From assembly GCA_036517655.1 (NCBI GenBank), contig DATDVE010000013.1:28364-92363 (forward strand): a DNA stretch of 64,000 bases. Reading direction: 5' to 3'. Below are positions 54,601-61,659 of the stretch, one piece after another. Each line of letters opens with the position of its first letter. Position 1 is the stretch's first letter. The translations under genes and the position numbers were made by a program. This stretch comes from Minisyncoccota bacterium (GTDB lineage Bacteria; Patescibacteriota; Minisyncoccia; Phycocordibacterales; DATDSR01). The notes under the pieces were generated by a model. The model worked only from the letters and a program-made list of their open reading frames with translations, was not told the DNA's origin and made no database searches.

Positions 54601-55363
54601 GCGCTACCTAGCCAGCGAAGAAGTGAGCGCTGGCGAAATAGTAGCTCTTGATCTTGAGGCAGAAAAGAGCGCAACAGTTAAGCGAGCGACCGAGGGAGAT
54701 GTGCTGATAGGCGTAATGTCCACTGCACCCGCGATTGCTTTCAACGGTCCAAGCTTGACCCTCGGTCCTGACAGAGAAGCGACAAGCACTAAACCCCTAG
54801 TTGCCCTAGTTGGTCGCGTGCCGGTCAAAGTAAACGTTGAGGGCGGCGAAATCAGAAAAGGTGACAGGATATCAGCGAGCAGTGAACTTGGGATAGGAAA
54901 AAAAGCTTTGCCAAGCGAGCAATCTGTCGGCTTTGCTCTTGAGAACTGGCCAAACGTAGACGATCCAGAGGATGACACGGTGCTTGTGTATGTTAAGTTA
55001 TCAGATACCGATACTCACAGAAACTCAATTGAAACTAGTGGAAACTCGTTGTCGGGAGATAAGGGAAGTAGATTAGATATGTCCGGTTGGGGCATAAACA
55101 GCGAAGGCGAACTGGTAGTTAAGAGAATAAGGGCCAAAGAATTGTGCCTGGGTAGTACATGTATTACAGAATCTGATTTGAAAGAGATCCTGAATAACCG
55201 ATCAACTGAAACTGATGGAAGTTTATTGCCGGAACCAGAAGTAACTCCCGAACCAGAGCCGGAAGTAATTCCTGAACCGGAGCAAATTGAACCGATTGAG
55301 GAAGTCGCATCTCTGCCTGAACCCGAAGAACTCACCGAGACAGTAGAGCCAATAGTAGAATAG
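51635..55363 (+). CDS. Giant secreted surface/fibre-like protein with internal repeats and acidic C-terminal PEPE repeats
   Basis: Signal peptide. 1242 aa rich in S/T/A/G. Near-duplicate modules GIGTSSPYAALSVVGASGVVADRYTATST / GVGTTSPYATLSVVGASGVVADKYFATST. C-terminus PEPEVTPEPEPEVIPEPEQIEPIEE. Confidence 0.65.
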   Translation: MKRLLLFSAFTVFAVALFAGRAYALPTAYLGYEGQLTNSSDTALTGSYDITFKLYYVLSGGTAIWTETHTDLSVSSGYFAATLGSTTPFSNIDFRNPLYLGITVESDSEMSPRQLIHSSAYSQTASTTLSVYATTTQPTSASGGSVYYNATDGRAFIYDAVNSAWRRLGLWATTTTGAAYYNDGRVGVGTTSPGATFSVQGDELISGTSTVGNLVATSSLKILGTATSTGANGWDITGGCFAINGVCITGSSATDITFSTTSADYWKTVNNFFSTTSADYNFEIAVSATSSLPKLSTLAGLVTLGSSTATTTALGHFGITSNFLVSGFSSLTKFGATNGTSTTFQTSNLGVGTDYLTDITGTGLSIVGGVLNCATASPLTIGCLSTTDWTLFNNKVSSTSIDTSAELAALLTDESGSGAFILDSSNLPSKWATSTGSTTAIIPSGGDSISLGIGTSTPGSRLSVGGVANFSAATSSFYSSGGIDLAAGCFAINGTCLTAGGITASQIAQSKWATSTTDSSAIYSAEATKVGIGTSSPYAALSVVGASGVVADRYTATSTATSSDFQGLFATFATTTSLFSTTASTTNLYADTASLASSTIYSLNLLGSGTTTAFNGINLTNGCFSIRGTCVGGSSSSGAPSNSKWSTSTDNVSIYVNAATNVGIGTSSPYTTLAVSGSVILDSNSITFASSSATSLTINYGVSSTSTIPVTKWNAWSIATSTTALSIFSIDTIGPYASSSFAGNFVIDGGRLSHDASTGETSIVNLSTGPLNFEDGAGWVSWTNIAATSSATADNDVQAYTAQLGSNDVLTIYGQADGPSNGAIDTLRTIIGTTTATLMSSTNIPYNSLIVSNSALCVGNTSAGNCTEFAMKRGQIVGWGGGIFMASSTGIVGVGTTSPYATLSVVGASGVVADKYFATSTRATSTFMGGVEIGTSTAPKNWKLTVQGGVCITSGNTCPDVESPGGLTVDTADATPDADDIGEVFDVAERYLASEEVSAGEIVALDLEAEKSATVKRATEGDVLIGVMSTAPAIAFNGPSLTLGPDREATSTKPLVALVGRVPVKVNVEGGEIRKGDRISASSELGIGKKALPSEQSVGFALENWPNVDDPEDDTVLVYVKLSDTDTHRNSIETSGNSLSGDKGSRLDMSGWGINSEGELVVKRIRAKELCLGSTCITESDLKEILNNRSTETDGSLLPEPEVTPEPEPEVIPEPEQIEPIEEVASLPEPEELTETVEPIVE

Positions 55364-55397: not shown

Positions 55398-55427
55398 TTC
55401 GATTTCCCCCTTGCGGGGGAAATCGAA
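55398..55427 (+). terminator. Strong hairpin (13-bp stem)
   Basis: TTCGATTTCCCCC-TTGC-GGGGGAAATCGAA. Confidence 0.55.
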
Positions 55428-55617
55428 ATTCAATATCACTCACACGCCCTTGTTGATTGACTGTCTAATCCTAAAGGATTTTGACCAAGGCTTTTGTGGT
55501 GTGAGTGTCTGCGTGGACTGTCACGAAACGTGGCGATCCCATTTCGGCATGAGCCCTTGGCAGAACGGTTCCTCAATGCCTATCGGACCTACAATCATGT
55601 CCGAATTGTATTGATAC

Positions 55618-56181
55618 ATGATATCAAACCCAAAACCGATGTCAAACCCAACAATCAAAGATAAAAAACCAATCAGGCTTAGGGGTAAGACCATTGTCTA
55701 CGTTGATTGGGCAAATGTTTATGGCTGGAGCAAATCGCTTAAGAAAGAAATAAGTTTAGAAAAGTTATTCGCTTATTTCAGGATTTACGATGGGGTCGAG
55801 GATATTCGTCTCTATTTTGGCGAGGATGTTAATCCTAAGTCAAAAAAGTTTTTGGTTGATGCCAGAAATATCGGATACACTGTTGTTAGTAAAGAAGTAA
55901 AATATATTGCCTCCGGCAAGATCGAAGGACAGGTGATACATAGAAGAAAATGCGATTTTGACATGGAAGTTAGTATTGACGTCCACAAGGCTTTGGCCGG
56001 AGGAGTTGAGGGCTTCGTCTTTTTGACCGGGGACGGTGACTTCGCGCCTCTCTACGAGATGTTAATTGCCTTACGTAAACAAGTGGTGGTGATATATACT
56101 AAAGGTCATATTGGGAGAGAAGTGTGGGCTATTAGTAAGGGCATTTTTAAGGCGCAATTAAAGAATATAGTGGATCTATAA
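55618..56181 (+). CDS. NYN-domain (LabA/YacP-like PIN-fold) ribonuclease
   Basis: GKTIVYVDWANVYG...FDMEVSIDV...FLTGDGDFAPL typical NYN signature. Confidence 0.7.
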   Translation: MISNPKPMSNPTIKDKKPIRLRGKTIVYVDWANVYGWSKSLKKEISLEKLFAYFRIYDGVEDIRLYFGEDVNPKSKKFLVDARNIGYTVVSKEVKYIASGKIEGQVIHRRKCDFDMEVSIDVHKALAGGVEGFVFLTGDGDFAPLYEMLIALRKQVVVIYTKGHIGREVWAISKGIFKAQLKNIVDL

Positions 56182-56189
56182 AAGATCAT

Positions 56190-56209
56190 CCCCCCGATTT
56201 CTCGGGGGG
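56190..56209 (+). terminator. GC hairpin after NYN gene
   Basis: CCCCCCGA-TTTC-TCGGGGGG. Confidence 0.45.
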
Positions 56210-56259
56210 CGTGATTAGATAAAGCATATCATTCCCAAAACCCATGTCAAGCCCTAAAA

Positions 56260-56333
56260 ACACAGAAATATCAGGATACTACGATATCAAGATATTGAGA
56301 TACTAATAAAAACTGCGATACTTAGATACTATG
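56260..56333. repeat. Left arm of about 75-nt GATACT-rich inverted repeat flanking the four-helix-bundle gene
   Basis: GATACTACGATATCAAGATATTGAGATACTAATAAAAACTGCGATACTTAGATACT pairs with the reverse complement of 56721-56815. Confidence 0.6.
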
Positions 56334-56720
56334 GCGGAGAAGAAAAGATATATACAGCTAAAAGATCTAGAGGTTTATAAACACGCAAGAGAGCTCTCGA
56401 GACTTGGTTGGGAGATGTATAAATCCTTCGACTGGCAGACAAAGAAGGTGATCGGAGATCAATTTATCACAGCAACTGATTCTGTGGGAGCTAATATTGC
56501 AGAAGGCTACAGCCGTTACCATTATCTAGACAGAATAAAGTTTTTCTACAATTCCCGAGGCTCGCTTGCCGAGGCGGCTGACCACTGGTTGGCCATTCTC
56601 CATGAACGAGGTAAAATAGATGATAAGCAACACGAAGCATTTGCTTTGATTGCCAGCAGGGTGTCGTTAAAACTCCAGAACTTCATCAATGCAATATATA
56701 AAACCAAAAACAGCGAGTAA
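56331..56720 (+). CDS. Four-helix-bundle protein (family usually found in 23S rRNA intervening sequences)
   Basis: EVYKHARELSRLGWEMYKSF...IGDQFITATDSVGANIAEGYSRYHY...YNSRGSLAEAADHWLAILHERG matches the TIGR02436-type four-helix-bundle family. Confidence 0.75.
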   Translation: MAEKKRYIQLKDLEVYKHARELSRLGWEMYKSFDWQTKKVIGDQFITATDSVGANIAEGYSRYHYLDRIKFFYNSRGSLAEAADHWLAILHERGKIDDKQHEAFALIASRVSLKLQNFINAIYKTKNSE

Positions 56721-58929
56721 AGTATCTAAGTATCGTAGTATCCCAGTATCTATTAGTATCGGTTTTATTTTCCTAGTATCTATAAGTATCTTGATATCAA
56801 CTAATATCGCCTCCATCGTCTCCGCTTTCACTATTCAAAAGACCCTGCCCACTCAACCCGACCTGCAAAACGGCCTAGTGGGCCACTGGACATTTGATGG
56901 CAAGGATATTTCCGGTACCAGCGCCACAGACCGAAGCGGCAACAACAACACCGGCACCCTCACCAACGGCCCACTTGCCACTGTCGGCAAAATCGGCCAG
57001 GCCCTGAACTTTGATGGGAGTGATGATTATGTAAGTATTGCGGACAATAATTCTCTTGACCTTACATCTGCGGTCACTATTAGCTTATGGTTTAAAGCTG
57101 ATGGGTGGACTGCCGCATACCAAGGGCTCGTTGCGAAAAGAATTGGCAATTCGTCCAATTACGGTTTGAATGTAAGTAGCACAGGAAGTGCATTTCAGTG
57201 GTTCTTCCATGACGGGGATTATCAGATAGTTGATATAAATGCAAGTACCGTTTCTACAGGCCAGTGGCATCATTTTGTGGGGACTTTTAGTGATACTGGC
57301 GATGTAGTGGGGTCTATCTATATTGATGGAACTTTGAAAAAGACAGAAACATTTACGGCTAGAAATCTTGTCGCAAATACCAATACTCTTCGTATCGGTG
57401 AGAGTAATAATCCGGCAAGTGGCCCCGAACATTTCAATGGCTCCGTCGACGACGTGCGCGTGTACAGCCGGGCGCTTAGTGCGGCCGAGATTACTAAACT
57501 GTACAAACTCGGGGCCACCAGTCACGTCAATGTCACCCTCCCCACCCAACCCGACCTGCAATCTGGTCTGGTCGGCCACTGGACGTTTGACGGCAAAGAT
57601 ATGGGCCCGAATGTACTTGATAAATCAGGCAACGCAAACCACGGCAATGCTGTTTACGGCACCACTGGCAATACGAGCACGACTACAGTCGCGGGCCGGA
57701 TCGGCCAGGCACTTGTCTTTGATGGATTTCCTGTGCTCAATGGATTAGCTGACAGCGTTCTTCTCCCTGGTGTTTCAGTGACGGGGACCAGCCATAGCGT
57801 TTCCATGTGGCTCAATGTTACCGGGCTTCCAGCCGACACATACGGTACCCTTTTCAGTGATGCGTTTGGGAACACTGGACTTTATTATTATAACGATGGG
57901 GCGACAGAAAAGATTACTTATTTCTATAGTCTTGCCGATAATTTCGCCTCAACTACAATAAAAGTTGATAACAAGTGGCACCATTTTGCAGCTGTTTCCG
58001 GTACTGGCGGAGTTACTTTCTATGTCGACGGAGTTAGAAGTGGCGCAGTGTTTGGTCAAGTCCCGGATTATTCGGCAACAAGAATCGGAGGTGACATTTT
58101 TAACGATGAGTTTAAGGGTGCCCTCGACGACATCCGTCTCTACAATCGTCCACTTAGCGCGGCAGAAGTAACTAAACTATACAAACTCGGGGCCACCAGC
58201 CACGTCAACACAACCCTCCGCACCCAACCCGATCTGCAAAATGGCCTAGTGGGCCACTGGACATTCGACGGAAAGGACGTGGGGCCGAATGTACTTGATA
58301 AATCAGGCAACGCAAACCACGGCAATGCTGTTTACGGCACCACTGGCAATACGAGCACGACTACTGTGCCAGGCCGCATCGGCCAAGCTTTGAGCTTTGA
58401 TGGCGTGAACGACTATGTTCTGGTAAATAATAGTGCAAGTCTCACTATGACCACTGGTGATATAAGTATGGGAGGGTGGTTATATCGAAATGCGTCATTC
58501 TCGGTCAATCCCAATATCTTCCACAAAAAGAGTGGTACAAATGATATTAATAGTGGATACGCTATGGGAGTATTAAGAAGCACCCATTCATTGGGTGGCC
58601 ACAAGCCAGCTTTCAGTTTCGCCGATGGTACAAATGCCGCTTATTTCTACCCCACATCAATAACATACGCAACACCTTTCAGAAAGTGGGTCCATGCTTT
58701 CGTAGTTTTCAATTCTACTACCGATACGGCGCAAATATATATCAACGGACAACCAGTCGATACAACTAACGTTTATGCCAGCGCGATTGGTTCAGTAACT
58801 AACACCACAGCGCCAAATATAGGCAGGATATCCACATCCTACTTTGGTGGAAATATTGATGATTATCGCGTCTACAGCCGGGCGCTTAGCGCGGGGGAGG
58901 TGAGGAAATTGTATGAGATGGGAAGATAG
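56689..58929 (+). CDS. Secreted protein with three tandem LamG/concanavalin-A-like lectin domains
   Basis: Each about 228-aa repeat begins TQPDLQ.GLVGHWTFDGKD and ends DD.R.Y.RALSA.E..KLY.LG. Start uncertain: the N-terminal hydrophobic segment is encoded by the right inverted repeat and overlaps the four-helix-bundle gene. Confidence 0.65.
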   Translation: MQYIKPKTASKVSKYRSIPVSISIGFIFLVSISILISTNIASIVSAFTIQKTLPTQPDLQNGLVGHWTFDGKDISGTSATDRSGNNNTGTLTNGPLATVGKIGQALNFDGSDDYVSIADNNSLDLTSAVTISLWFKADGWTAAYQGLVAKRIGNSSNYGLNVSSTGSAFQWFFHDGDYQIVDINASTVSTGQWHHFVGTFSDTGDVVGSIYIDGTLKKTETFTARNLVANTNTLRIGESNNPASGPEHFNGSVDDVRVYSRALSAAEITKLYKLGATSHVNVTLPTQPDLQSGLVGHWTFDGKDMGPNVLDKSGNANHGNAVYGTTGNTSTTTVAGRIGQALVFDGFPVLNGLADSVLLPGVSVTGTSHSVSMWLNVTGLPADTYGTLFSDAFGNTGLYYYNDGATEKITYFYSLADNFASTTIKVDNKWHHFAAVSGTGGVTFYVDGVRSGAVFGQVPDYSATRIGGDIFNDEFKGALDDIRLYNRPLSAAEVTKLYKLGATSHVNTTLRTQPDLQNGLVGHWTFDGKDVGPNVLDKSGNANHGNAVYGTTGNTSTTTVPGRIGQALSFDGVNDYVLVNNSASLTMTTGDISMGGWLYRNASFSVNPNIFHKKSGTNDINSGYAMGVLRSTHSLGGHKPAFSFADGTNAAYFYPTSITYATPFRKWVHAFVVFNSTTDTAQIYINGQPVDTTNVYASAIGSVTNTTAPNIGRISTSYFGGNIDDYRVYSRALSAGEVRKLYEMGR
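56721..56815. repeat. Right arm of GATACT-rich inverted repeat
   Basis: AGTATCTAAGTATCGTAGTATCCCAGTATCTATTAGTATCGG...CTAGTATCTATAAGTATCTTGATATC. Confidence 0.6.
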
Positions 58930-59019: not shown

Positions 59020-60246
59020 ATGAAGGGATACATACATAGATACTTGGAATCGGCTGTTTTGAGGATTTCGAAGACATTTCCGGTTCTTTTATTGACCGGA
59101 CCTCGGCAGGTGGGGAAGACTACGCTTCTGCAGTATCTTATTGCGCAAGAAGGGAAAAAGCGCGGGTATGTCAGTTTGGATGATTTTAAAACGCGCACAC
59201 TGGCCAATGAGGATCCGGCGCTGTTTCTCCAGCAAAATCCTTCTCCCTTGCTCATTGATGAAGTTCAATATGCTCCCAAGCTTTTTACCTACATTAAGAT
59301 TGCTGTGGATCGAGATCGCAACAATGGCATGTATTGGCTTACCGGATCGCAGCAATTCCACATGATGAAAGGAGTATCAGAATCACTCGCTGGGCGCGTG
59401 GGCATATTGTCGCTCCTGGGCCTCTCGCAGGCAGAAATTGATGGTATGCCGCAAAAAGAGGAGCCGTGGATGCCAGGCGCCGCTGCCAAAGCAGAGGGTA
59501 CGAGCACCACAGCCATATTCAGTAAAATTATCAAAGGATCGTTTCCCGCGCTTTTTCAGGATCAAGCTCCCAAACTTGACGAATACTATGGCGCTTATCT
59601 CCGTACCTATGTTGATCGCGATGTGCGGGACATCATCAAAGTTACCTCTCTTGCCTCATTTGAAAAATTTGTTTCCGTTTGCGCGGCAAGGACAGCATCA
59701 CTTTTGAATTATTCTGATCTGGCCCGGGATGCCGATATCAGTGTTCCTACCGCAAAAGAGTGGATGAGCATTCTCGAGGCCGGACACCATGTGTTTCTAC
59801 TCCGTCCCTATTATCGTAATCTCACCAAGCGTCTCATCAAGGCCCCAAAGCTTTATTTTCTTGATACCGGACTTGCGGCGTATCTTACAGGCTGGCGCGA
59901 TCCTGGAACGGCACTTCGCGGGGCCTATGCCGGCCAGTTGTTTGAAACATTGATCATCAGTGAGATTATCAAAAGCTATGTGCATCGTGGCAAGGATCCG
60001 CGTTTCTTTTCATATTTTCGAACCAAAGAGCAAGAGGAGGTCGACTTTCTCATTGATCAAAATGGAATACTCACGCCTGTTGAGGTTAAACTTGGAATGC
60101 AAGTGAACAAGGCTGATCTCCGCGGTGTTGAAGCGCTTAAAGCTACCAAGACAAAGGTCGGGCTTGGCGCAGTCATTGCGCCCGTGGAGGCGCCGTATCA
60201 TCTAAACCAAGATGTTATCGTTGAGCCGCCAAGCGCGATTTCATGA
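59020..60246 (+). CDS. AAA+ ATPase with DUF4143 domain
   Basis: Walker A LLLTGPRQVGKTT. 408 aa. Arrangement typical of the DUF4143 ATP-binding protein family. Confidence 0.75.
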   Translation: MKGYIHRYLESAVLRISKTFPVLLLTGPRQVGKTTLLQYLIAQEGKKRGYVSLDDFKTRTLANEDPALFLQQNPSPLLIDEVQYAPKLFTYIKIAVDRDRNNGMYWLTGSQQFHMMKGVSESLAGRVGILSLLGLSQAEIDGMPQKEEPWMPGAAAKAEGTSTTAIFSKIIKGSFPALFQDQAPKLDEYYGAYLRTYVDRDVRDIIKVTSLASFEKFVSVCAARTASLLNYSDLARDADISVPTAKEWMSILEAGHHVFLLRPYYRNLTKRLIKAPKLYFLDTGLAAYLTGWRDPGTALRGAYAGQLFETLIISEIIKSYVHRGKDPRFFSYFRTKEQEEVDFLIDQNGILTPVEVKLGMQVNKADLRGVEALKATKTKVGLGAVIAPVEAPYHLNQDVIVEPPSAIS

Positions 60247-60316
60247 CGACGTGCGCATCTACAACCGGGCGTTGAGTGCGGGGGAGGTATTAAAATTGTA
60301 CGAGATGGGGAGGTAA
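60244..60316 (+). pseudogene. Orphan duplicate of the LamG-protein 3' end (encodes DDVRIYNRALSAGEVLKLYEMGR*)
   Basis: About 78% nt identity to 58853-58929. Begins exactly at the ATPase stop codon. Confidence 0.6.
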
Positions 60317-60344
60317 TTTGACCCTATTTCTTTAATAATATACA

Positions 60345-60956
60345 ATGGAAGGGTGGAGATATCACCTTTCCATCAGACACATGTCCACAGATAATCTCAT
60401 TGCCAAGCTATATCAGTCCCCCAAAACAATCCTAACCACAAAGGATATTGCTTTAACTTGGGGGGAAACTAACCCCATCAATCTTTTCTCAAAGATCAAA
60501 TATTATGCCAAACAAGGATCGCTGATCCGCCTATCTAGGGGGATTTTTGCCAAAGATAAAAATTATAATCCTAAAGAACTAGCCACGAGTATTTATACTC
60601 CATCATACATCAGTTTTGAAACAGTCCTAAGGGAAGCCGGTATAATTTTCCAGTACCACGATTCGATCTTTGTGGCCGGTCCCTATCCCACGATAAAAAA
60701 GTTTGGAGATCAAACGATTACATTTAGGAAATTGAAAGATAGCCTTCTCTATAATGCCAAGGGTGTTAAAAGTGAAAAGAATTACAGCATCGCCACACCG
60801 GAACGAGCCCTCCTCGATACCATGTATTTATCTCCTAAATTTTATTTTGACAATCTGCGACCTATTAACTGGGAGATATGCTTCGAACTTGCAAAAATTT
60901 ATGGCAACAAGCAGTTAATTAAACGAGTCGCAGAATACCAAAAGCATGCTCAATAA
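60345..60956 (+). CDS. AbiEi-family antitoxin/transcriptional regulator (type IV TA)
   Basis: N-terminal wHTH-like region (...GSLIRLSRGIF...) and position immediately upstream of, and overlapping, the AbiEii gene. Confidence 0.65.
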   Translation: MEGWRYHLSIRHMSTDNLIAKLYQSPKTILTTKDIALTWGETNPINLFSKIKYYAKQGSLIRLSRGIFAKDKNYNPKELATSIYTPSYISFETVLREAGIIFQYHDSIFVAGPYPTIKKFGDQTITFRKLKDSLLYNAKGVKSEKNYSIATPERALLDTMYLSPKFYFDNLRPINWEICFELAKIYGNKQLIKRVAEYQKHAQ

Positions 60957-61659
60957 AGAGAAACATCAACTAATCATGGGGCAGATTCTGCGAGATATTT
61001 ACTCGGATACTTCTATCTCATCTTTGCTCGGATTCAAGGGCGGTTCCTGCGCCTACTTTTTCTATGGTCTATCAAGATTTTCTGTCGATCTTGATTTCGA
61101 CCTATTTTCTAGCGACGAAGCTACTCAAAAATTGGTGTATGAAAAAATTGGTAGCATGTTGGGGAGATACGGAGAAATCAAGAATAATTATATAAAACGC
61201 AACACTATTTTTTTCCTGCTCTCATACGGAGACGCAGAGCACAATGTCAAAATTGAAGTTAATGTGAGAATCTTGATGCCCGATCTCAAAGAGCATTACA
61301 AAGTGGAAGAATATCTTGGAATTTCTATGCTTGTGGGCAAAAAGGATTATCTCTTCGCAAGTAAGCTCGCGGCACTCACTGACCGAAGATTGCTTGCTAT
61401 GCGCGATATTTACGATATTTGGTTCTTTGCCAAAAGCAACTGGGATATCGATGCCGAGGTACTCAAGACGAGAACCGGCAAAACTATCAAAGAACGCATG
61501 GCTGATTGCATTGCAGTCATTGAAACGGTTAAAGACAATGAAATTTTGCGAGGACTGGCCGAATTGTTATCGGGCGAAAAAGAAAAGGCGTGGGTCAAAG
61601 TTCACTTAAGAAAAGAGGTTATCTTCCTGCTCAAGAACTACCAGTCGGTATTAAAATAA
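60946..61659 (+). CDS. AbiEii/AbiGii-family nucleotidyltransferase toxin (DUF1814)
   Basis: GFKGGSCAYFFYGLSRFSVDLDFD matches the GG(T/S)...RFSEDLDF signature of AbiEii. Confidence 0.7.
   Translation: MLNKEKHQLIMGQILRDIYSDTSISSLLGFKGGSCAYFFYGLSRFSVDLDFDLFSSDEATQKLVYEKIGSMLGRYGEIKNNYIKRNTIFFLLSYGDAEHNVKIEVNVRILMPDLKEHYKVEEYLGISMLVGKKDYLFASKLAALTDRRLLAMRDIYDIWFFAKSNWDIDAEVLKTRTGKTIKERMADCIAVIETVKDNEILRGLAELLSGEKEKAWVKVHLRKEVIFLLKNYQSVLK

Follow-up and report, generated by a model that had tools for sequence, protein, structure and literature searches.

A four-helix-bundle gene between paired, periodic repeat arrays: a probable intervening-sequence-type cassette among protein-coding genes of a Minisyncoccota genome

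In Coxiella burnetii, the 23S rRNA intervening sequence (IVS) is 428 nt long and carries an open reading frame (ORF) of the PF05635 family, directly preceded by 3-4 tandem GACAGAT heptamers whose number varies between strains; its 28-bp terminal stem is cut by RNase III, with a cut at the first repeat (PMC4990558). Excision of rRNA IVSs in general consists in RNase III removal from the precursor without religation. After more than 30 years the origin and mobility of these elements, and the function of their ORFs, are still open (PMC4990558). PF05635 ORFs are rare in the rRNA insertions of the Candidate Phyla Radiation (CPR), making up 22 of 455 annotated ORFs (PMC11270868). Members of the family have also been seen inside cas operons, for instance between cmr3 and cmr2 (PMC3936711), and the family includes the Avd proteins of diversity-generating retroelements (DGRs) (PMC10053308). 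Here we describe a PF05635 gene that is bracketed by two mutually inverted arrays of short tandem repeats in a 64,000-nt stretch of DNA from a Minisyncoccota bacterium (contig DATDVE010000013.1, positions 28,364 to 92,363 of the forward strand). This whole stretch was analysed and is referred to below as the window; its first letter is position 1. We consider it probable that the gene and its arrays form an IVS-type cassette lodged in an operon spacer (NYN gene, cassette, LamG gene) and akin to the ORF-bearing intervening sequences of rRNA. The features concerned are as follows.

55618-56181, plus strand: gene with an NYN domain (Pfam match)
56265-56330, plus strand: left array, seven units in tandem, core GA[AT]A[TC] (sequence, GATACT hits, cluster scan; GC 0.29)
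56275-56808, plus strand: predicted long imperfect stem enclosing the ORF as its loop (folding; ~59 pairs in helices of ~19-23, 8 and 14 bp)
56331-56720, plus strand: gene for a 129-aa four-helix-bundle protein (PF05635 and TIGR02436 profile matches)
56689-58929, plus strand: gene for a 746-aa protein with three LamG domains (translation and Pfam)
56721-56808, plus strand: right array, nine units, the reverse complement of the left units (sequence, inverted-repeat search, cluster scan; GC 0.28)

The NYN gene, the 129-aa ORF and the LamG gene, which together occupy 55618-58929, are co-directional, and the GC content of the cassette is 0.38 compared with 0.48 in its surroundings. The 129-aa protein matches PF05635 (23S_rRNA_IVP) over model positions 1-104 of 106 (E 1.2e-20, 74.1 bits, cut-off 33.8) and also TIGR02436 (E 8e-19, 67.8 bits, cut-off 24). 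An earlier annotation made from the letters alone, called here the sequence-only reading, had assigned the ORF to the four-helix-bundle family and placed it between an NYN and a LamG gene, away from any rRNA. The profile match bears out this assignment, its coordinates were right to within a few bases, both neighbours are identified by Pfam, and no rRNA, tRNA or any other Rfam match is present in the whole 64-kb window. With respect to the conserved motif GxxRxxxSxxxNxxE described for the family (PMC3936711), the protein contains S51-x3-N55-x2-E58, invariant among 26 close homologues, and the G..R half of the motif is not evident in the subfamily (DQFITATDS). A profile of the close homologues matches PDB entries 2RLD (E 6e-6) and 2GSC (E 4e-4), both deposited with five chains, and by this similarity the cassette protein would be a four-helix-bundle pentamer. 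The identical 129-aa protein occurs on 17 public contigs, where it is annotated as a protein of Candidatus Paceibacterota (CPR) metagenome-assembled genomes (MAGs); gene order, neighbours and orientation are unchanged in all 10 places listed of those 17 contigs. The window contains a single copy of the cassette. Its only ORF is the PF05635 gene, no transposase was found in it or adjoining it, and the best candidate for a promoter of its own is a 9/12 match built from array units (56295-56322), which is not convincing.

In the left array the cores start at 56265 (GAAAT), 56275, 56283, 56291, 56299, 56317 and 56325, the units following each other in the order GAAAT, GATACT, GATATC, GATATT, GATACT, GATACT, GATACT at spacings of 10, 8, 8, 8, 18 and 8 nt, i.e. 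with a period of mostly 8 nt. The array closes at 56330, directly before the ATG at 56331. At the other end, the stop codon (TAA, 56718-56720) is followed on the very next base by the right array, composed of AGTATC at 56721, 56729, 56737, 56745, 56755, 56775 and 56785, GATATC at 56793 and AATATC at 56803 (spacings 8, 8, 8, 10, 20, 10, 8 and 10 nt). Eleven of the 43 GATACT sites of the window lie in these two arrays, the expectation for the whole window being 25.3±5.0 sites. A cluster scan of the window with the generalised core returned the two arrays and one five-unit run in coding DNA (55004-55045), and nothing else. With the arrays confined to this locus in the scan, we rejected a low-complexity artefact, and the possibility raised in the sequence-only reading, that the repeats are common genome-wide, finds no support in the local concentration of GATACT sites. 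The additional run (GATACCGATACTCACAGAAACTCAATTGAAACTAGTGGAAACT) has five cores at a mostly 10-nt period in the C-terminal coding part of a 1242-aa ORF, with no matching reverse array nearby, and could be due to chance or be a relic.

Inverted-repeat arms were detected at 56312-56330 with 56721-56739 (19 nt, 95% complementary) and at 56299-56330 with 56729-56760 (32 nt, 84% complementary). The full 590 nt (56226-56815) fold at -147.4 kcal/mol (z = -3.4) into a long terminal stem that has the ORF in its loop and whose innermost predicted helix, of ~19-23 bp, spans the region of the ORF's ATG and stop codon. When the arms alone are joined by a tetraloop, the energy is -55.5 kcal/mol, compared with -28.1±3.7 kcal/mol for shuffled sequences (z = -7.5; none of 200 shuffles was as good). 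The imperfect inverted repeats are therefore able to form the long stem that had been surmised from the sequence, and folding of the region, which had been suggested as a check, gives a stable one.

The architecture is shared by relatives. We fetched 80 loci of the closest relatives (50-66% identity, one genome per species) and inspected the flanks of each ORF. At nearly all of them a tandem array of units like TAGAAAT, TTGAAAT, TGGAAAC, TAGATAT or TTGATACT lies upstream and a reverse-complement array downstream. Cores were counted in 73 non-redundant loci with both 140-nt flanks (CPR, Bacteroidota and others), with control flanks taken 700 nt away. Upstream of the ORF, GA[AT]A[TC] occurs 4.90 times per locus in forward and 0.77 times in reverse orientation; downstream the values are 0.92 and 4.93, and in the control flanks 0.84 and 0.66. 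Successive cores are by far most often exactly 10 nt apart (124 intervals upstream, 166 downstream); smaller peaks lie at 7-8 and 11 nt, and the extended unit consensus is approximately (A)(A)T(A)GA(A/T)AT(T). Arms have a median of five cores, and 4 is the modal length of the longest clean chains (range 0-16). In many loci the distance of the innermost core is 1-8 nt to the start codon and 0-11 nt to the stop codon. We conclude that the arrays are a conserved, periodic and oriented feature of the whole subfamily, and not a peculiarity of the window locus. The 8-nt GATACT-type array is a clade variant, as the closest homologue (L136, 73% identity) also has 8-nt units, four upstream and six downstream. 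A literature search returned no description of such arrays around non-rRNA PF05635 genes, which is not proof of novelty.

Some individual arrays deserve mention in their own right. At L047 (2225-2400) the right array has grown into a long perfect tandem repeat of the unit CCTAATTTCTTAGTTT, with 16 cores in 140 nt, so arrays can grow by slippage. Short G+C-rich hairpins (e.g. GCTCGC...GCGAGC, GGGCCGTCAGGCCC) are interspersed among the array units on both sides in L017, L019, L024, L040, L051, L063 and L089. Upstream of the NYN gene of L097 (3200-3500), GAAAT left-type arrays with a 10-nt period stand before two other ATGs, one of the ORFs starting MEKNFDQWNEVKK; judging from this locus, some CPR genomes may have arrays that do not accompany a PF05635 gene.

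All of the ~80 close relatives examined lie between protein-coding genes. They fall into at least 36 distinct downstream-gene clusters and therefore represent many independent contexts, such as RecF-cassette-enolase, DnaB-cassette-RecR and signal peptidase-cassette-secreted protein. Orientation relative to these neighbours is nearly constant: the upstream gene is co-directional with the cassette ORF in 73 of 75 loci, the downstream gene in 67 of 73, and both are in 62 of 69. The largest cluster comprises 29 Bacteroidota loci, cultured Cyclobacteriaceae and Marivirga among them, with the order resistance-nodulation-division (RND) pump, cassette, TolC-like gene. The 55-65% identity between proteins from CPR MAGs and those of cultured Bacteroidota isolates suggests, at the level of sequence, that the cassette has spread horizontally. 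As to possible vehicles and targets, a phage origin was rejected, since a pattern search of IMG/VR returned no viral relatives, and so was a plasmid origin, the sole distant hit (Pseudanabaena, 28% identity) being without arrays. A preference for secreted-protein genes as targets was likewise discarded: a strongly hydrophobic N-terminus is found in just 29 of 69 downstream genes, many of these come from the TolC cluster, a single orthologous group, and genes with cytosolic products (enolase, RecR, UvrD-like helicase) are also found downstream.

The cassette behaves as a discrete unit. One Paceibacterota MAG contains two paralogous copies (L051 and L063) that are 84% identical over ~650 nt, including both arrays and the ORF, and unrelated outside; a 34-nt indel between them is a difference in the number of repeat units. 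Among relatives of the NYN gene (38 loci, 53-62% identity), NYN-LamG synteny without the PF05635 ORF occurs in L094/L102, L097 and L103. The presence-or-absence comparison that the sequence-only reading had proposed for this junction thus finds the ORF missing in several relatives. L094 and L102 carry an ORF-less derivative in their spacer, a GAAAT-type array pair with arms at 904-939 and 1002-1037 (75% complementary, fold z = -2.4). The LamG frame is open through both GAAAT/ATTTC arrays there (L094, 895-1045, identical in L102), and a start at a TTG within the right array would yield a classic signal peptide (MFRISLFGFLILLIIVGVSFAHDASA). The spacer of L097 has a few units at most. A second comparison involves L092 (1600-1710), where a divergent PF05635 gene (34% identity) stands behind 7-nt GAAT(A/T)T(A/G) units and the contig ends, and L109 (1080-1190), which has no PF05635 ORF but only a right-type array of five ATTTCTA units, from which the N-terminus of the following gene (MSFYKFLKVSIVFL...) is read. 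The two share DNA downstream of NYN, including a long palindrome (CCCCGTTAGAGG...CCTCTAACGGGG), and are a candidate pair of occupied and deleted sites.

The two arms co-vary. In 55 of 59 loci both arms have the same core type (A, GAAAT/C; T, GATAT/C; Fisher 8e-12), and when the large TolC cluster is set aside, 31 of 35 do (7e-5). Non-cognate arm pairs and shuffled sequences served as controls in place of distant flanks. Against these pairs, cognate arms form the more stable duplex (-36.3 vs. -25.8 kcal/mol, p = 8e-8) and have the higher alignment score (53.6 vs. 39.7, p = 3e-8), and the excess similarity is located in the cores (0.88 vs. 0.79). A comparison of raw duplex energy between cognate and distant flanks (-36.3 vs. 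-36.4 kcal/mol) was dropped as uninformative, because distant flanks are GC-richer coding DNA.

At the window locus the cassette and the LamG gene overlap. The only in-frame ATG of the LamG gene, at 56689, is situated 32 nt inside the cassette ORF; the further in-frame starts, TTG at 56791 and GTG at 56878, do not leave a normal signal peptide, and gene callers on the public contigs likewise give a LamG protein of 746 aa. Read from 56689, the protein begins MQYIKPKTASKVSKYRSIPVSISIGFIFLVSISILISTNIASIVSAF, in which a long hydrophobic segment comes after a basic stretch, and its residues ~12-40 (hydrophobic stretch SKYRSIPVSISIGFIFLVSISILISTNI) are encoded by the right array. It had been noted from the sequence that the right repeat encodes the hydrophobic N-terminus of the downstream ORF, and the array is indeed read in the only ATG-initiated frame of LamG. 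Orthologous LamG proteins have a signal peptide at the same position. Similar overlaps occur elsewhere, the first in-frame ATG of the downstream gene lying before or inside the right array in ~16 of the 27 site clusters whose array could be scored. In the 29 Bacteroidota loci the ATG of the TolC-like gene overlaps the cassette stop codon (ATGA), and its frame runs through the right array, which is translated as a conserved peptide, QY.SISNI.KYL, before the signal sequence. The cassette has been kept at this one site across many genera (L027, L031, L032, L034, L035, L039, L055, L057, L062, L066, L071 and others). This suggests translational coupling and long-term retention of the cassette at the RND-TolC site. 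An inserted element can, in this way, become entangled with a host gene by donating a start codon and a signal peptide.

We infer that the cassette is co-transcribed with its host genes, forms a stem and is processed. In this reading the unit consists of the left array, the PF05635 ORF and the right array; it lacks a transposase and any convincing promoter, and its orientation argues for transcription together with the host genes. In the transcript the arrays are predicted to zip into a long imperfect stem that joins the start and stop codons of the ORF at its inner end. Short tandem units would make such a stem tolerant of shifts in register, and slippage and conversion would keep the arms alike. 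The likeness to rRNA IVSs makes the stem a candidate substrate of RNase III, and its cleavage would free the cassette RNA from the host RNA. At the window locus the element is also entangled with its neighbour, LamG now starting inside the cassette and taking its signal-anchor from the right array. Finally, and more speculatively, the conserved core and strict period could make the arrays recognition sites of the cassette's pentameric protein as well, and we see a good chance that they have this role, either in addition to stem formation or in place of it. Of the attributes of an IVS, a long enclosing stem and tandem repeats directly upstream of the ORF are both present, and a location in a 16S or 23S helix is not. 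The part of the sequence-only reading that drew the analogy from architecture stands, since the architecture matches that of the Coxiella IVS; its statement that the family normally resides in rRNA was too strong, given that ~80 relatives are all found between protein-coding genes.

A number of observations weigh against a processed, IVS-type stem. Not being in rRNA, the cassette fails the literal definition of an IVS. The architecture is a property of the subfamily and not of all of PF05635, since arrays are absent around a distant member (28% identity) on a cyanobacterial (Pseudanabaena) plasmid. The minus strand of the arms folds equally well (-54.9 kcal/mol), and the functional strand is therefore not identifiable from folding at the window locus. 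Family-wide, the arms do lean towards a stem on the sense strand, but weakly: 279 arm mismatches give G.U on the sense strand vs. 226 on the antisense strand (p = 0.02; 42 vs. 23 loci), and the sense strand forms the better duplex in 44 loci vs. 28 (p = 0.013). Complementarity of the spacers between cores is not above background (0.684 for cognate and 0.679 for non-cognate arms), and there are 922 transversions among the arm mismatches vs. 3905 matches. RNase III cleavage would sever the LamG ATG at 56689 from the body of the gene, as this codon lies between the loop and the right arm; with the LamG start inside the cassette, complete excision is not the whole story at this locus. In the 29 Bacteroidota loci, translation of the TolC-like gene through the right array argues for a right arm that is often single-stranded and intact. 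Last, the L051/L063 pair shows no evident target-site duplication and no clear terminal boundary, with ragged array edges, and no insertion mechanism is evident from it.

With similarity restricted to the cores and transversions so numerous, the arms appear to be held alike mainly at the cores, which suits recognition by a protein at least as well as a stem. It is possible, if doubtful, that the arrays are primarily protein-binding sites and that tandem GA[AT]A[TC] units, likeliest as single-stranded RNA, would wrap around the ring of the PF05635 pentamer in the manner known from TRAP. Binding of the left array over the ORF start would then autoregulate the protein, and the right arm would be left free for translation of the downstream gene, an arrangement compatible with the IVS-type cassette. 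One 5-nt core kept across phyla at a strict 10-nt period would be expected of binding sites, as a mere stem could drift, although common ancestry of the cassettes could give a shared core without selection. The concentration of arm similarity in cores and not in spacers, the innermost core within 1-8 nt of the ATG in many loci and the translation of downstream genes through the right arm all point the same way. The period of 8 nt in the window and L136, compared with 10 nt elsewhere, suits flexible single-strand binding and not one face of a duplex. The median of five cores per arm and the five chains in each of 2RLD and 2GSC invite the idea of one unit per subunit; with a modal clean chain of 4 and a range of 0-16, however, the match to a pentamer is loose and lends weak support. 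A further point against sequence-specific binding is that bAvd, a DGR relative, is said to bind nucleic acid without sequence specificity.

We regard it as unlikely that the arrays act in DNA, either as subterminal repeats of a non-autonomous transposon, like the several transposase-binding sites at the ends of Tn7, Mu, Ac/Ds or En/Spm, or as hairpin ends of single-stranded DNA, with an enzyme encoded elsewhere that is perhaps recruited by the four-helix-bundle protein. Repeats that are direct within the ends and inverted between them would fit such an element, as would a discrete unit with two copies in one genome, at least 36 insertion contexts with high identity across phyla, equal folding of both strands at the window locus, and the ORF-less derivative of L094/L102, which resembles a miniature inverted-repeat transposable element. 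However, co-orientation with upstream and downstream genes in 73 of 75 and 67 of 73 loci would be unexpected unless selection were strong. No transposase is encoded in or next to the cassette, which is present in one copy in the window and in two diverged copies in one other MAG; the L051/L063 pair has neither a clear boundary nor a target-site duplication, its array edges being ragged; and a pattern search of viral contigs returned no relatives.

Inverted repeats around a short segment are also typical of invertible switches. Either a phase-variable invertible segment or a stray DGR Avd gene with remnant repeats, the latter conceivable because PF05635 includes Avd-like proteins (PMC10053308), is highly improbable and largely refuted, given that no reverse-transcriptase family is present among the called genes with Pfam families within ~6 kb on each side, that the LamG repeats are ordinary domain repeats, that order and orientation are the same in all 10 places listed of the 17 contigs, and that co-direction with the upstream gene in 73 of 75 loci gives no sign of inversion.

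An IVS-type cassette in an operon spacer remains the reading that we prefer, and it can be extended into a broader proposal that is, taken as a whole, somewhat unlikely. PF05635 pentamers with periodic arrays may constitute a class of 'operon-riding' elements, complete in themselves and dispersed over several phyla, that has gone unrecognised. By reading its repeats in the transcript, the ring protein would switch between a closed stem, with the cassette silenced or excised, and an open form, with the downstream gene translated through the right array, and deletion would be made hard by supplying the neighbour's start codon and signal peptide. The rRNA copies may be no more than the conspicuous part of a far larger population of cassettes between ordinary genes. 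The dozens of independent contexts of such cassettes, their ORF-less derivatives and the co-variation of their arms make it possible to probe movement and recognition by the pentamer. Insertion between the genes of an operon may also explain the 'association' of PF05635 with unrelated systems, as between cmr3 and cmr2 (PMC3936711).

The surroundings of the cassette contain a further conserved feature.

56182-56254: 3' module of the NYN gene, with a hairpin at 56190-56209, CGTGATTA and a minus-strand promoter-like TTGACA-16-TATGCT at 56250-56223 (conserved in relatives)

The cassette starts ~11 nt past this module. In every NYN homologue examined (L091-L128) the gene is followed by such a module, made up of a G/C hairpin, an invariant GGGGCGTGATT, TATAGCA and GTCAA; the stem sequence of the hairpin differs between loci yet stays complementary. 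On the minus strand the module reads as a near-consensus promoter, TTGACA-16/17-TATACT (TTGACA/TATGCT in the window). Firing into the terminator-like hairpin (56209-56190 plus a T-run), this promoter would produce a predicted RNA of ~40 nt, which would converge with the 3' end of the NYN gene or be antisense to it and is possibly an antitoxin-like partner of the nuclease. A second minus-strand promoter-like site (TTGACA-16-TATCAT, 11/12, 55645-55618) is located at the NYN start codon and points into a 250-nt spacer that ends with a hairpin, CGATTTCCCCCTTGCGGGGGAAATCG (55400-55425); an unannotated minus-strand RNA may be encoded in 55400-55645, judging from these motifs. The 250-nt spacer upstream of NYN is not conserved in the relatives. 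On the other side, just 3' of the LamG gene (59020-61659), lie an AAA_14/DUF4143 ATPase gene, a 203-aa ORF without a Pfam hit on record and an AbiEii-family gene. With the AAA_14/DUF4143 and AbiEii-family genes adjoining, the cassette sits beside a small block resembling defence or toxin-antitoxin genes.

Among known systems, the Correia elements of Neisseria have inverted-repeat ends, are intergenic and co-transcribed, and form hairpins that RNase III can cleave. The cassette is like them in having ORF-less copies (L094/L102). Correia elements differ in that they contain no ORF, have arms of unique sequence and not periodic arrays, and are confined to a single genus, whereas the cassette is found across phyla. 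TRAP is a ring-shaped homo-oligomer that recognises 11 (G/U)AG repeats, spaced short motifs that overlap a translation start. Its fold is unrelated to that of PF05635 and the cassette has a complementary second array downstream, so that the likeness is one of mechanistic analogy. Tn7, Mu, Ac/Ds and En/Spm have several direct copies of a motif at each end, with the ends inverted. Unlike these, the cassette has no transposase, a strong bias of orientation relative to host genes and ragged outer boundaries.

The Avd and bAvd proteins (PDB 4DWL) are homologous four-helix-bundle pentamers that work with nucleic acid (PMC10053308). Unlike the Avd genes of DGRs, the cassette has no reverse transcriptase among the called genes within ~6 kb, nor were template and variable repeats noticed nearby, though no search aimed at them was made. 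We know of no Avd genes that are bracketed by inverted repeat arrays. The closest counterparts are the ORF-bearing IVSs in the rRNA of Coxiella (S23p), Leptospira and CPR bacteria, in which the ORF of the same protein family also lies within stem-forming terminal inverted repeats, and which are likewise sense-oriented in the host transcript and lower in GC than their surroundings. Unlike these rRNA IVSs, the cassette stands between protein-coding genes, has longer arms (7 + 9 units) and contains within it the beginning of the downstream coding sequence.

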